The translations under genes were made by a program, and so were the position numbers. From the NCBI GenBank assembly GCA_016176285.1, contig JACOXM010000001.1, positions 5,812-69,811 of the forward strand: a stretch of 64,000 nucleotides of DNA, written 5' to 3'. Under the pieces are notes generated by a model, which did not search any database, had not been told where the DNA came from, and saw nothing but the letters and a program-made list of their open reading frames with translations. Shown here piece after piece: positions 2,301 to 18,835 of the stretch; positions within the stretch are counted from its first letter, which is position 1; each line of letters begins with the position of its first letter. This DNA is from Candidatus Giovannonibacteria bacterium. Its GTDB lineage: Bacteria > Patescibacteriota > Minisyncoccia > JACPKW01 > UBA11713.

Positions 2301-3515
2301 ATGGCCATTTTTCAATACAATGCTCGAACTATTTCCGGCGAGGCAAAATCAGGCCAAGTCGAAGCTCCGAACATGGAGCTAGCGATCTCGGCGCTTCAAA
2401 GGAGGTCGCTTGTAATACTGTCTCTGGTCCCTGCCGAAGATTCCCTGCCCTGGTATAAAAAAGAAATTTTTAGCTTCGGTAGCGGGATAAAATTACGCGA
2501 TGTGGTTATTTTATCGAGGCAGATGGCCACCTTGTTTGAAGCAAGGGTTCCCGTTGTAGATTCTCTGAAAGTTTTATCGAATGAAACTATGAAGCCAAAG
2601 CTCAAGAAAGCATTAACTGAAATTTCGCAGGATATTCAGGGCGGGCTTTCCATAACTCAGGCAATGTCGCGGCATCCCGAAGTTTTTTCCGACTTCTATG
2701 TAAATATGGTCCGTTCCGGAGAAGAATCCGGAAAACTTGAAGAAATTTTTTCGTATCTCGCGGATTATCTTGATAGAAGTTATGAACTTGTTTCCAAGGC
2801 GAGAAATGCTTTGATTTATCCTATTTTCGTTTTTATTGTATTTATCGCCGTTATGGCTTTAGTTATGGTTTTTATTATCCCGCAGGTTTCCAAGATTCTC
2901 ATTGAAAGCGGGGCGGAAATTCCAATATATACGCGGATAATTATGTCGTTATCCGATTTCCTTCGCAGTTATGGGATCGTACTTCTTATGTTAATTGTCC
3001 TTGGGGGATTATTTTTGTGGAGATACTCTAAGACGGAGAAAGGAAGTATGGCCATCGCACGCCTGACGCTTGAAACGCCTGTCATGGGAGAGATATTCCG
3101 TAAATTTTACGTAGCCAGGATTACGGACAATCTCGAAACTTTAATAGTCGGAGGGGTTACGGTTTTACGCGCCCTTGAATTGAGTTCCAAAGTTGTCGGG
3201 AATGCCCTTTTCAAACAAATGATCGAGGAGGCGGGGGACGCAGTGCGGGGGGGCGTGCCGATATCAGAGGCATTCGGCAGGTATAAGGATATGCCATTGC
3301 TTGTTGTTCAGATGATAAAAATTGGAGAGGAGACAGGCAAGCTCGATTTTATGCTTAAAACATTGGCTCGTTTTTATAGAAAAGAGGTGGAAAACACTGT
3401 GGATAACCTAGTGGGCTTAATTGAGCCGGTAATGATAATTTTCCTCGGAATAGGCGTTGCCATTCTGGTCGTTTCCGTGTTGATGCCGATATACAACATT
3501 TCGGCCGTTCTTTGA
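2301..3515 (+). CDS. pilC: Type IV pilus platform protein PilC (GspF family)
   Basis: 404 aa. Two GspF-type repeats each followed by transmembrane segments. Conserved GE.SG.L / GEETGKLD motifs. Confidence 0.85.
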   Translation: MAIFQYNARTISGEAKSGQVEAPNMELAISALQRRSLVILSLVPAEDSLPWYKKEIFSFGSGIKLRDVVILSRQMATLFEARVPVVDSLKVLSNETMKPKLKKALTEISQDIQGGLSITQAMSRHPEVFSDFYVNMVRSGEESGKLEEIFSYLADYLDRSYELVSKARNALIYPIFVFIVFIAVMALVMVFIIPQVSKILIESGAEIPIYTRIIMSLSDFLRSYGIVLLMLIVLGGLFLWRYSKTEKGSMAIARLTLETPVMGEIFRKFYVARITDNLETLIVGGVTVLRALELSSKVVGNALFKQMIEEAGDAVRGGVPISEAFGRYKDMPLLVVQMIKIGEETGKLDFMLKTLARFYRKEVENTVDNLVGLIEPVMIIFLGIGVAILVVSVLMPIYNISAVL

Positions 3516-16242: not shown

Positions 16243-16301
16243 TTACTAATAGAAATTTATATAAAATCAAAATAGCCCGTTAAGGGCCATTTTGTCGCGT
16301 G

Positions 16302-16372
16302 TTGCGGGGGCGGGAATTGCACCCGCGCCTTGAGGTTATGAGCCTCACGAGATACTACTTCTCTACCCCGCG
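16302..16372 (-). tRNA. Initiator-like tRNA(CAU) with atypical D and T loops
   Basis: Cloverleaf by hand. Acceptor CGCGGGG/CCCCGCA plus A73, identical to the E. coli tRNA-fMet acceptor with the C1xA72 mismatch. A11:U24. Anticodon loop CUCAUAA. The D-loop AGTAGTA lacks GG and the T-loop is TGCAATT rather than TTCAAAT. Confidence 0.5.
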
Positions 16373-16376
16373 ATAT
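16349..16376. repeat. Left copy of 26-bp direct repeat (agatactacttctctaccccgcgata); equals the tRNA 5' acceptor/D-arm on the minus strand
   Basis: Exact 26-nt match to the right copy once the 40-bp insert is removed. Confidence 0.7.
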
Positions 16377-16384
16377 TATATTAA

Positions 16385-16624
16385 TTAACCCAGCCGTTTT
16401 TTTAAGTATAACCTGCCGAATCCTGTTTTCAAGATCTTTTCTCTTGATATGGCATTTTCTCGAATTTTACAGGCTTCATAATATACCAGCTCCAGCGGAG
16501 TTCTATTTTTTGTAGCTATAACATTCCCGCTGTTATGTTGCTTAACGCGATTTATTAAATTATCAGTCCATCCGATGTATAGTTTTCCATCTTTCTTACT
16601 TTTGAGAACGTAAGTATAAAACAT
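16385..16624 (-). CDS. Small GIY-YIG nuclease family protein (COG2827-like)
   Basis: 79 aa MFYTYVLKSKKDGKLYIGWTDNLINRVKQHNSG...ELVYYE...REKILK, the classic GIY-x10-YIG / R / E arrangement. Confidence 0.75.
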   Translation of the reverse strand: MFYTYVLKSKKDGKLYIGWTDNLINRVKQHNSGNVIATKNRTPLELVYYEACKIRENAISREKILKTGFGRLYLKKRLG

Positions 16625-16692
16625 AGATACTACTTCCCCGCCTGCAGTCGCTATCGCGACAGCGATTGCGGGCAGGTCTACCCCGCGATAAA
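16624..16692. repeat. Right copy of the 26-bp direct repeat, interrupted by a 40-bp GC-rich hairpin-forming insert (16637-16676)
   Basis: agatactacttc + cccgcctgcagtcgctatcgcgacagcgattgcgggcagg + tctaccccgcgata. The insert contains the cccgc/gcggg, cctgc/gcagg and gtcgc/gcgac inverted pairs. Confidence 0.7.
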
Positions 16693-16807
16693 TTTTATAT
16701 TAGCTGTAATGTATATATATTTCAAGTTCTATTTACGAAGTAAGCTATTTGTATCATAAACGTTGTATAATATAGGGGTGATTGTTATAGGATTAACGTA
16801 AATATAT

Positions 16808-18064: not shown

Positions 18065-18835
18065 GTGGCTAAGTTCGAAAAACGATTAATGGCTTTAAAA
18101 TTAAGAAAGCGAGGATGGAGCATTAAACATATAGCCAGTAATCTTGAGGTTTCAAAAAGTACCGCGAGTATTTGGTGCAGGGATTTAGTTCTTACGTCTA
18201 AACAAAAATCATTGTTGATTAAAAAAGCCATAAAGGCTGGTCATTGCGGCAGAATAAAGGGAGCTAATTTTAATAAAGAAAAAAAGGAAAAAATAATTCA
18301 GTTCTTTAAAGACGAAGGTATAAAAAAGTTAGCAGCAATTTCAGATAGGGAATTTTTAATATCTGGTTTATCGCTGTACTGGGCTGAAGGCAGTAAAAAA
18401 GACAAACTTTCGTTTGTAAATTCTGAACCTGAAATGATTATGTTTATGTATAAATGGTTTTACGAAATTATGGGTGTTAAAAAAGATGAGTTTATGCCAA
18501 GAATATTTATTAATGAAATACATCGTCCGAGGATAAATAAGGTCTTGAGATTTTGGTCAAAATTGCTAAACTTACCCGTAAGTCAATTTGGCAATCCGGT
18601 TTTTCTTGCCCACAAACAAAAAAAAGTATATGAGAACTATAATAACTATTACGGCGTCTTGGCACTAAGGGTTAGAAATAGTAGCAGGTTGAAATATGAA
18701 ATTATTGGTTTGATTGATGCATTAAAAAAAAGTAATATAGCCAAGGTAGCTCAATGGTTAGAGCGGTCGTTTCATAAGCGACAGGTTGTGGGTTCAATTC
18801 CCACCCTTGGCACAAATATTGGGCGCGTGGTGTAG
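18065..18835 (+). CDS. HTH-domain protein with two LAGLIDADG-like motifs (homing-endonuclease-like); ORF runs into tRNA-Met
   Basis: GTG start. N-terminal HTH (RGWSIKHIASNLEVSKSTASIW). Motif 1 ISGLSLYWAEGSKK and motif 2 IIGLIDALKK ~115 aa apart. No stop before the tRNA; the final 31 codons are tRNA sequence (VGSIPT = gttcaattccc). Confidence 0.5.
   Translation: MAKFEKRLMALKLRKRGWSIKHIASNLEVSKSTASIWCRDLVLTSKQKSLLIKKAIKAGHCGRIKGANFNKEKKEKIIQFFKDEGIKKLAAISDREFLISGLSLYWAEGSKKDKLSFVNSEPEMIMFMYKWFYEIMGVKKDEFMPRIFINEIHRPRINKVLRFWSKLLNLPVSQFGNPVFLAHKQKKVYENYNNYYGVLALRVRNSSRLKYEIIGLIDALKKSNIAKVAQWLERSFHKRQVVGSIPTLGTNIGRVV
18740..18812 (+). tRNA. tRNA-Met (anticodon CAU; elongator Met or Ile-lysidine type)
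   Basis: Acceptor GCCAAGG/CCTTGGC. D-loop AATGGTTA. Anticodon loop TTCATAA. T-loop TTCAATT. Discriminator A. Confidence 0.85.

Follow-up and report, generated by a model that had tools for sequence, protein, structure and literature searches.

The Ssn family consists of single-domain GIY-YIG proteins that bind and cut only single-stranded DNA (ssDNA) beside hairpin repeats of the NTS/SRM kind (Chenal et al. 2025, PMC11893778). The repeats flank the ssn genes and are scattered in hundreds of copies, an organization that the authors liken to REP/RAYT and IS200/IS605; the family occurs mostly in Pseudomonadati and, in Neisseria, SsnA modulates transformation (PMC11893778). We describe here a locus of Candidatus Giovannonibacteria (contig JACOXM010000001.1) in which a GIY-YIG open reading frame (ORF) of 79 aa and a GC-rich palindrome of 40 nt adjoin an initiator-type tRNAMet whose 5′ end is present twice. 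Coordinates are positions in a stretch of 64,000 nt of that contig, the window below. The arrangement, first described in an earlier note made from the sequence, is confirmed, and the locus is probably selfish DNA at a tRNA gene. By its single domain and its association of gene and hairpin repeat, the Ssn family is the closest described system, and the best-supported reading is that of an Ssn-like nuclease/hairpin selfish DNA, with an undescribed architecture that would regenerate the 5′ end of the tRNA.

Other known systems resemble parts of this locus. Rickettsia palindromic elements (RPE) are short palindromic selfish DNAs present in frame inside conserved protein genes. Islands and prophages of the integrase type lie at tRNA genes with the 3′ end duplicated, are kilobases long, and carry an integrase of the tyrosine or serine type. 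In T4-like phages, MobA with the gene-60 "hop" insert is a case of free-standing GIY-YIG homing. T4 SegB is a GIY-YIG homing enzyme within a tRNA cluster (PMC2330249). Sparse GIY-YIG ORFs are found in non-intron insertions of rRNA genes in bacteria from the Candidate Phyla Radiation (CPR) (PMC11270868). The tRNA 5′ architecture, the palindrome, and its in-frame occurrence within protein genes are not described in the publications found by literature searches, including searches by the hairpin sequence and its peptide.

Split duplication of the tRNA 5′ end

The elements follow one another on the minus strand in this order: a promoter-like site, the leader with tRNA nucleotides 1–11, the palindrome, tRNA nucleotides 12–23, the ATG of the nuclease ORF, its stop codon (TAA), a 12-nt spacer, the intact tRNAMet, and a terminator-like hairpin. 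The 26-nt repeat at 16350–16375 recurs exactly as two blocks, 16625–16636 (12 nt) and 16677–16690 (14 nt), parted by exactly 40 nt (16637–16676). The 14-nt block (part X, minus strand), an exact repeat of 16362–16375, comprises a 3-nt leader (TAT) and tRNA nucleotides 1–11 (CGCGGGGTAGA), the whole being TATCGCGGGGTAGA. The 12-nt block (part Y, minus strand), an exact repeat of 16350–16361, contains nucleotides 12–23 (GAAGTAGTATCT), and its last base, 16625, adjoins the ATG at 16624–16622. Eight further nucleotides of the leader (TAATATAA, minus strand), including a −10-like box, are duplicated at 16376–16383 and 16695–16702, offset by a 4-nt indel. As a contiguous sequence, the 26-mer occurs once in the window even with three mismatches allowed, and never in shuffled sequences. 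It is the 5′ end of the tRNA, not the 3′ end, that is duplicated, and an intact identical target (tRNA nucleotides 1–23) persists 12 nt past the ORF stop. The earlier description of a right-hand copy split by a 40-nt hairpin and ending at the GIY-YIG start codon thus stands, with the repeat coordinates tightened to 16350–16375.

The intact tRNAMet(CAT) (16301–16372, minus strand), detected by ARAGORN and Rfam, scores 61 bits with the Rfam tRNA model (gathering score 29) and, by direct reading of the sequence, has the C1:A72 mismatch that typifies bacterial initiators. Its first 23 nt form the downstream repeat copy, so that the assignment of the left repeat to the acceptor/D-arm 5′ part of an initiator-type tRNA is borne out; no other initiator-type tRNA is present in the window. 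Between the stop codon and tRNA +1 lie 12 nt (16373–16384, minus strand), of which at least 11 duplicate the leader upstream of part X. The palindrome (16637–16676; CCTGCCCGCAATCGCTGTCGCGATAGCGACTGCAGGCGGG on the minus strand), assigned by the shared termini CCYGCCYGCAA...TTGCRGGCRGG to a family dispersed in the DNA of CPR and in other metagenomic sequences, is imperfect, with 16 of 20 Watson–Crick pairs and transition mismatches at all four exceptions. It stands 12 nt upstream of the ATG and, folded as ssDNA, reaches −12.8 kcal/mol (z = −3.1) on one strand and −13.1 kcal/mol (z = −3.5) on the other.

The ORF (16385–16624, minus strand) encodes a single-domain GIY-YIG nuclease, as first proposed, according to Pfam (PF01541, 56.3 bits for a cut-off of 22.6, residues 1–69), AlphaFold2, and fold matches. 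The AlphaFold2 model has a pLDDT of 96.8 and the order of elements E-E-H-H-E-H-H; Foldseek matches it to UPF0213 1zg2, Slx1 (TM 0.74), and I-TevI. Among solved structures, the closest to it are two uncharacterised UPF0213 proteins (1zg2 and 1ywl) and Slx1, a branched-DNA nuclease; UPF0213 proteins are also the best sequence relatives in the PDB, and NCBIfam gave no specific family. The 79 aa are catalytic domain throughout, without a DNA-binding domain. Residues Y5, Y16, G18, R26, H30, E50, and E62 are invariant in an alignment of 27 sequences and, by homology, would be the conserved catalytic Tyr, Tyr-x-Gly, Arg, His/Tyr, and Glu of the superfamily. A protein with the same sequence is annotated in a record of Candidatus Giovannonibacteria. 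With dN/dS values of 0.05–0.16 in six pairs of relatives (dS near saturation), the nuclease is, as judged from codon substitutions, under strong purifying selection and kept functional. A profile search returned 3,719 cluster representatives at E ≤ 1e-10, and the 2.9 million contigs of IMG/VR contain only one relative (L101), on which ground a phage origin was rejected. The gene has no 5′ or 3′ untranslated region of its own; there are no terminal inverted repeats around it and no transposase, and none of the ORFs adjacent to it at the locus is a recombinase.

A sigma-70-like promoter (TTGAAA, 17-nt spacer, TAATAT; 16697–16725, minus strand) emerges from a consensus scan with 9 of 12 matches. 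By its position, its predicted start falls a few bases 5′ of the upstream tRNA 5′ copy; it is presumed to be the native tRNA promoter, now driving hairpin, ORF, and tRNA. From this promoter to the tRNA, every base belongs to the duplicated leader/tRNA 5′ end, to the palindrome, or to the ORF. Within the 3′ end of the ORF, a second promoter-like site (TTGAAA, 16-nt spacer, TATACT; 16405–16432, minus strand; 10 of 12 matches), with a −10-like hexamer ending 32 nt upstream of the tRNA, is a possible secondary tRNA promoter. A promoter embedded in the conserved C-terminal codons is unconvincing, with sites in 17 of 66 ORF tails versus 10 of 66 ORF interiors. Directly 3′ of the tRNA, the consensus scan also gives a terminator-like hairpin with a T-rich tail (16268–16294, minus strand).

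The design recurs in relatives. The family survey comprises 80 genome loci encoding relatives of the nuclease, most of them labelled Patescibacteria or one of its candidate phyla and about 25 with other or generic labels (for example, "uncultured Gammaproteobacteria"). At 64 of the 80 loci, a same-strand tRNA or transfer-messenger RNA (tmRNA) starts between −50 and +45 nt from the end of the GIY-YIG match. The tRNA-linked loci span 19 anticodon types (most commonly Gln, Lys, Asn, Thr, Ile, and Leu), with a gap from stop codon to tRNA +1 of mostly 0–15 nt and several ORFs that read into the tRNA; the tmRNAs lie slightly further downstream, 62–100 nt past the stop. A related GC-rich palindrome, with the termini given above or the symmetric CCCGCCCGC...GCGGGCGGG, is present at most 140 nt from the nuclease gene at 63 loci. 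By exact-seed matching, 49 of the 80 loci have the same split duplication, with leader and tRNA 5′ part (X), hairpin, the next 6–18 nt of the same tRNA (Y), 0–30 nt, the ORF, and the intact tRNA. The hairpin typically precedes the start codon by about 9–22 nt. Non-target leader of up to about 30 nt precedes the start codon at a minority of loci; in the window and at many other loci, the insert runs essentially from ATG to stop.

The borders of the duplication are variable. The hairpin follows tRNA nucleotides 5–21, with no common cleavage motif, and the duplication has its start at −14 to +1 and its end at nucleotide 14 to about 50 (at some Asn loci, the dead copy runs on, decayed, to about nucleotide 50). 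At the duplicated loci, the hairpin is inside one copy, not at the end of the element. L019 and L062 contain units in tandem, and in L011 a second X-hairpin-Y unit stands without an ORF. Three tmRNA loci, L055, and the IMG/VR match L101 depart from this plan: they lack a duplication, and their hairpin is placed between the ORF and the RNA gene's 5′ end. At many loci, a species-specific leader is common to pseudo-copy and live copy; in L018, L058, L088, and L142 they are different alleles of the tRNA. The cassette is present at one of the three tRNA genes of the window and at one of several in the tRNA clusters L041 and L062. Clustering of the nucleases follows the tRNA type in part (Ile, Asn, Leu, tmRNA, and Gln groups); a strict fidelity to tRNA type is contradicted by the nearest neighbors Lys/Gly, Thr/Lys, and Ile/Val.

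Ends of protein genes are also occupied. A NAD-epimerase gene is split by the hairpin within its first codons, exactly after GGAGF, in L042, L065, and L066, where the nuclease ORF is followed by a complete epimerase gene that has an ATG of its own. In L031, the order is reversed, with an intact 3′ end, aminoacyl-tRNA-synthetase-like as read from the translation, before the nuclease and a hairpin-split second 3′ end after it. The two gene-end copies are different alleles with many synonymous differences in L065, L042, and L031; those of L066 share an identical 28-nt core and differ only at the N-terminus. In divergent GIY-YIG copies (the second copy of L034, 42% identity, and L130, 53%), a dead tRNA copy split by a hairpin likewise precedes the ORF; their hairpins are unrelated double hairpins, with the split at the D-arm in L034 and at the anticodon loop in L130. 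A further GIY-YIG copy, 51% identical (L052, 3030–3308), is bracketed by a duplication of about 50 nt comprising the 3′ end of a tRNATyr and its terminator, without a hairpin of the CCYGCC type. In L016 (2240–2500), the nuclease ORF follows in frame a DnaB helicase-like C-terminal part (…DADVVMFLYREE…AAELV) and reads into a tRNALeu, which could reflect a rearrangement, a fusion, or a misassembly.

The empty site of the locus would have the precise junction ...AAATTTATCGCGGGGTAGA|GAAGTAGTATCTCG. The comparison with empty loci proposed at the outset gave none for this species: the diagnostic 33-mer of leader, X, and Y is absent from the JGI metagenomes, and synteny via the DUF5667 neighbor led to homologs at most 53% identical in unrelated contexts. 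All four Logan contigs of the species are filled, and the identical nuclease proteins P0112 and P0027 each occur in one fixed context in 24 contigs (24 + 24) from many samples.

The palindrome as a dispersed repeat

The 40-mer is present once in the window. A hairpin-first scan of the JGI metagenomes with a degenerate 36-mer gave at least 120 loci, with 122 copies among the matches listed, to which the following counts of copies refer. The palindrome is, thus, an independent, dispersed mobile repeat, mostly away from nuclease genes: a GIY-YIG gene lies within 130 nt of 2 of the 122 copies and within about 131 nt of 4. The probability of finding a hairpin given a nuclease gene is about 0.8, that of finding a nuclease gene given a hairpin about 0.03. 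Eight asymmetric positions are strictly anti-symmetric (CTCT|GAGA or TCTC|AGAG) in 116 of the 122 copies, and the two orientations are equally frequent. The flanks have a weak target preference, YYYG^T, and an intact empty-site copy is found nearby for about 5 copies. Half of the copies (60/122) are in frame within ORFs of at least 150 codons; 36 of these 60 read PARNAT(H/R)SVAGG, the commonest peptide being "PARNATHSVAGG". As read from the translated ORFs of L119, L120, L122, L115, L108, and L113, the hosts of this peptide appear to be alanyl-tRNA synthetase, CTP synthase, BipA/TypA, a class III aminotransferase, NrdD (anaerobic ribonucleotide reductase), and a DNA alkylation repair protein.

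Palindromes are also nested in the apex of other palindromes (L006, L010, L024, L061, L073). In L158 (9240–9275), a CPR-type palindrome occupies the apex of a repeat matching the Neisseria NTS core (TTCCCGC TTT CGCGGGAATGAC); at least four copies of the NTS-like repeat are present in the 11 kb of the contig, with further copies at 2117, 6339, and 7225. A solo palindrome lies inside a predicted tmRNA gene in L038 (2923–2958 within 2859–3278), the 5′ end of which is adjoined by nested palindromes.

The type of hairpin co-varies with the nuclease, type A with "EKxLKTGFG" and type B with "EKxFKTGFG" proteins; the mean identity is 64.2% within types versus 62.2% between types, a difference reached in none of 2000 permutations. 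The earlier note had offered two origins for the hairpin, a residual terminal structure or a later insertion resembling a miniature inverted-repeat transposable element (MITE). It is indeed a MITE-like dispersed palindrome. That it is the remnant of a terminus, or came in later by coincidence, is contradicted by its presence at 63 of the 80 loci, the co-variation, and the hairpins of L034 and L130.

A role of the hairpin at the DNA level is favored, because both orientations with respect to the ORF are represented (21 A, 7 A′) and DNA copies of it are dispersed; a function as an RNA element was rejected on the same grounds. The RNA fold of the 106-nt leader has a z-score of only −2.0. As donor of a Shine–Dalgarno sequence, the hairpin is too far from the start codon.

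Known systems, the favored reading and its alternatives

The resemblance to Ssn includes the bare GIY-YIG domain of about 80–95 aa (single-domain proteins of about 90–100 aa in Ssn, 79 aa here), the position of the gene beside a hairpin-forming imperfect palindrome that also has many solo copies, and the co-variation of nuclease and repeat variants. The differences concern the host clade (CPR here), the number of hairpins (usually one per gene, instead of one on each flank), and the location, since the gene is here locked to tRNA/tmRNA 5′ ends with a hairpin-split pseudo-copy, and neither tRNA nor CPR is mentioned in PMC11893778. Nuclease/hairpin pairs of this kind are candidate new site-specific ssDNA nucleases, a class with shown biotechnological use. 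With REP/BIME-RAYT and IS200/IS605, the palindrome shares imperfect pairing with conserved mismatches, insertion into hairpin apices, the absence of target duplication by the hairpin itself, and one protein gene for many orphan repeats; here, however, the enzyme is a GIY-YIG nuclease instead of an HUH/Y1 transposase, and there is one hairpin instead of two ends. Like RPE, the palindrome adds an in-frame peptide (36 nt, "PARNATHSVAGG") to alanyl-tRNA synthetase, CTP synthase, BipA, and other proteins, but it is much shorter (36–47 nt), differs in sequence, is found in CPR, and is tied to a GIY-YIG gene at tRNA loci. Its presence in such core enzymes would be a second example, after Rickettsia, of selfish DNA that protein genes tolerate.

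Integrase-type islands have in common with the locus a duplicated tRNA piece bracketing foreign DNA and a tRNA that stays intact, but here the 5′ end is duplicated, the insert is a 240-nt ORF plus a 40-nt hairpin, and there is no integrase. The T4-like homing genes are also small nuclease genes beside highly conserved genes, tRNAs included, with a short insert that breaks a target-like sequence and, as at some loci here, flanking alleles that differ between copies; the present cassette differs from them in the lack of a DNA-binding domain, the persistence of an intact target, the duplicated gene end, and the absence of any polymorphism among the contigs compared. The insertions in CPR rRNA genes are similar in that small GIY-YIG genes reside in stable-RNA genes without being carried by group I or II introns; they are inside rRNA, and PMC11270868 reports no hairpin, duplication, or link to tRNA.

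On balance, we lean towards the view that a two-part DNA system common in CPR/Patescibacteria, selfish or possibly domesticated, has a resident copy at this locus, with the nuclease acting on the hairpin. One part would be the UPF0213/Ssn-like ORF, a passenger with neither promoter nor leader nor terminator of its own, wedged between the promoter and the body of the tRNA; the other would be the palindrome, from a family that also has many solo copies, including inside essential protein genes. The promoter-proximal tRNA copy is dead, split by the palindrome after nucleotide 11 and cut off by the ORF at nucleotide 23, and the distal copy is complete and would be the working tRNA; the host gene would survive because the leader and the first 23 nt are present twice. 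From the geometry of the locus, we infer co-transcription and release by RNase P: the tRNA promoter would yield a single precursor with pseudo-5′-end, hairpin, ORF, and tRNA, and cleavage by RNase P at tRNA +1 would free the tRNA, leaving an mRNA that ends 12 nt past the stop codon. The hairpin is most likely the recognition structure of the nuclease in ssDNA, because of the Ssn precedent, the co-variation, and the clustering of hairpins at nuclease genes. The nuclease would recognize the palindrome extruded as an ssDNA hairpin and nick beside it, as biochemical work has demonstrated for Ssn nucleases and their NTS/SRM hairpins; through such nicks, the palindrome would spread and the cassette would, by recombination, be placed or kept at the ends of conserved genes. 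CPR genomes are tiny, with mostly single-copy tRNA genes. Much of bacterial diversity belongs to the CPR/Patescibacteria, and the repeated, non-lethal colonization of essential stable-RNA 5′ ends by a selfish cassette would be new in their genome biology.

Several points weigh against this reading. The promoter and the terminator are consensus matches only. The Ssn repeat motif (HGTCWYN(0-2)YYVSBRHN(0-5)WNVSBRGN(0-2)RNCYNB) matches neither 16601–16720 nor the type A hairpin, and membership in Ssn through the repeat motif is, therefore, rejected. With a single copy of the 40-mer in the window, an active nuclease/repeat system in this genome is conjectural, and there is no sign of recent movement of the cassette, since P0112 and P0027 remain in fixed contexts and all four contigs of the species are filled. 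Hairpin and ORF do not form one contiguous insert, because the target-derived segment Y lies between them, and no single known mechanism produces this. The constant presence of the hairpin could be an effect of survivorship: heterology in one copy of the direct repeat should slow repeat-mediated deletion of the cassette, so that old cassettes would become enriched for hairpin-split repeats. Finally, L142, L191, and L201 contain a hairpin-split dead tRNA copy beside a live tRNA without a GIY-YIG gene, L104 a split tRNA-like fragment beside a different tRNA, and L011 its second unit. The earlier note had named the same repeat arrangement without any GIY-YIG gene, in related genomes, as what would refute a selfish element integrated at a tRNA gene. 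These loci do so in part: the arrangement is a hallmark of foreign or selfish DNA at a tRNA gene, and the design recurs at tmRNA, at protein-gene ends, and at no fewer than 19 tRNA/anticodon types, but the duplication is not strictly the footprint of integration of the nuclease gene, since it exists without that gene in these three loci.

Segment Y, the variable ends of the duplication, and the mixture of identical and foreign-allele copies each contradict one simple duplication model. From homing by a simple double-strand break, one would expect chimeric tRNAs or a hairpin in each of the two copies; Campbell integration via a crossover in X conflicts with loci whose pseudo- and live copies differ throughout; homology-facilitated illegitimate recombination predicts deletion, not duplication; and a staggered cut is unable to place the hairpin inside one copy. 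The origin of the gene-end duplication is a well-posed and testable mechanistic question. A further reading, which we consider unlikely though worth keeping in view, is a DNA-only mobile module of a kind so far unrecognized that uses the homology of a carried target fragment to reach the ends of essential conserved genes and "self-heals" the gene it hits with a complete copy. The nuclease would then act on the extruded hairpin, for example, in a three-way junction between donor ssDNA and a naive target during natural transformation; in a variant, the hairpin-marked dead copy would give target immunity to the neighboring essential tRNA. Rather improbable, in our estimate, is a classical free-standing homing endonuclease that cuts the intact double-stranded D-arm of nuclease-less tRNA genes, the cassette being copied by repair and the hairpin serving as immunity or "hop"-like insert. 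The targets are indeed among the most conserved DNA (the D-arms of tRNAs, the 5′ end of tmRNA, the GGAGFIG Rossmann codons in epimerases, the aminoacyl-tRNA-synthetase-like motif), the differing alleles of L018, L058, L088, L065, L031, and L142 are as expected from co-conversion or transfer between genomes, and the tandem arrays of L019 and L062 and the T4 SegB precedent in a tRNA cluster (PMC2330249) point the same way. But the protein is a bare 79-aa catalytic domain, its characterised single-domain relatives cut only ssDNA (PMC11893778), and the downstream tRNA is a perfect target left uncut in the same genome. The hairpin position, from nucleotide 5 to 21, follows no common cleavage motif, the species-specific leader shared at many loci argues for duplication in place, not import, and no presence/absence polymorphism is seen among the four contigs of the species, the 24 + 24 contigs, or, with the 33-mer, in the JGI metagenomes.

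The earlier note had favored a small selfish element with a target-site duplication. In the form weighed here, a small transposable element with a nuclease would have made a 26-bp duplication, one copy of which was later hit by an unrelated MITE. This we regard as improbable to a greater degree. The direct repeat does bracket the ORF exactly, the hairpin is a dispersed palindrome that inserts independently, in both orientations and with a weak preference of its own for the target, and GIY-YIG nickases of Penelope-like elements, offered as an analogy, produce duplications of variable length. A transposon-style duplication is nevertheless contradicted by ends that vary from −14/+1 to nucleotide 14/about 50, by the internal position of the hairpin, and by the lack of terminal inverted repeats and of a transposase; moreover, the non-target insert is essentially ATG-to-stop in the window and at many loci. 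A chance landing of the hairpin is excluded by the asymmetry between the 63 of 80 nuclease genes near a hairpin and the 2–4 of the 122 listed hairpins near a nuclease gene, to which are added the co-variation of hairpin type with nuclease and the presence, in other subfamilies, of their own hairpins in the dead tRNA copy upstream of the ORF. To a host-beneficial or domesticated function, with the hairpin-bearing dead copy as a decoy or immunity mark that would shield the essential tRNA from a lethal insertion of the hairpin, or the nuclease as an aid to tRNA-locus maintenance or transformation control, we give the least credence. It would account for the strong purifying selection, the stable context fixed across many samples, and the persistence of dead-plus-live tRNA pairs with a hairpin even without the nuclease, and the effect of SsnA on transformation in Neisseria (PMC11893778) offers a parallel. 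It is conjectural, however; the cassette occupies a minority of the tRNA genes (one of three in the window, one of several in L041 and L062), and its design at various ends of protein genes, with alleles of foreign origin, suggests a parasite.

Annotation and neighboring genes

The architecture affects the annotation of CPR proteomes, through pseudo-tRNA fragments, ORFs that run into tRNAs, and spurious N-terminal extensions such as "IAGPARIATQSVAGG". For P0103, P0089, P0108, and the upstream frame of L045, gene callers carry the ORF upstream through the hairpin, yielding spurious N-terminal peptides of this sort.

Two neighbors in the window should be mentioned. On the plus strand, an ORF of 256 aa (18065–18835), with an N-terminal HTH_23 domain and a LAGLIDADG-like "LYWAEGSK" motif, runs about 95 nt into the next same-strand tRNAMet (18740–18813), and is a second nuclease-like gene directly 5′ of a tRNA; no hairpin or tRNA 5′ duplication is visible upstream of it. 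On the minus strand, about 75 nt downstream of the tRNA terminator, begins a frame-broken C-terminal fragment of deoxyhypusine synthase (PF01916; 15672–16191), in which an ORF of 144 aa matches profile positions 174–287 of 288. This fragment is probably a pseudogene truncated where the tRNA/nuclease block sits.

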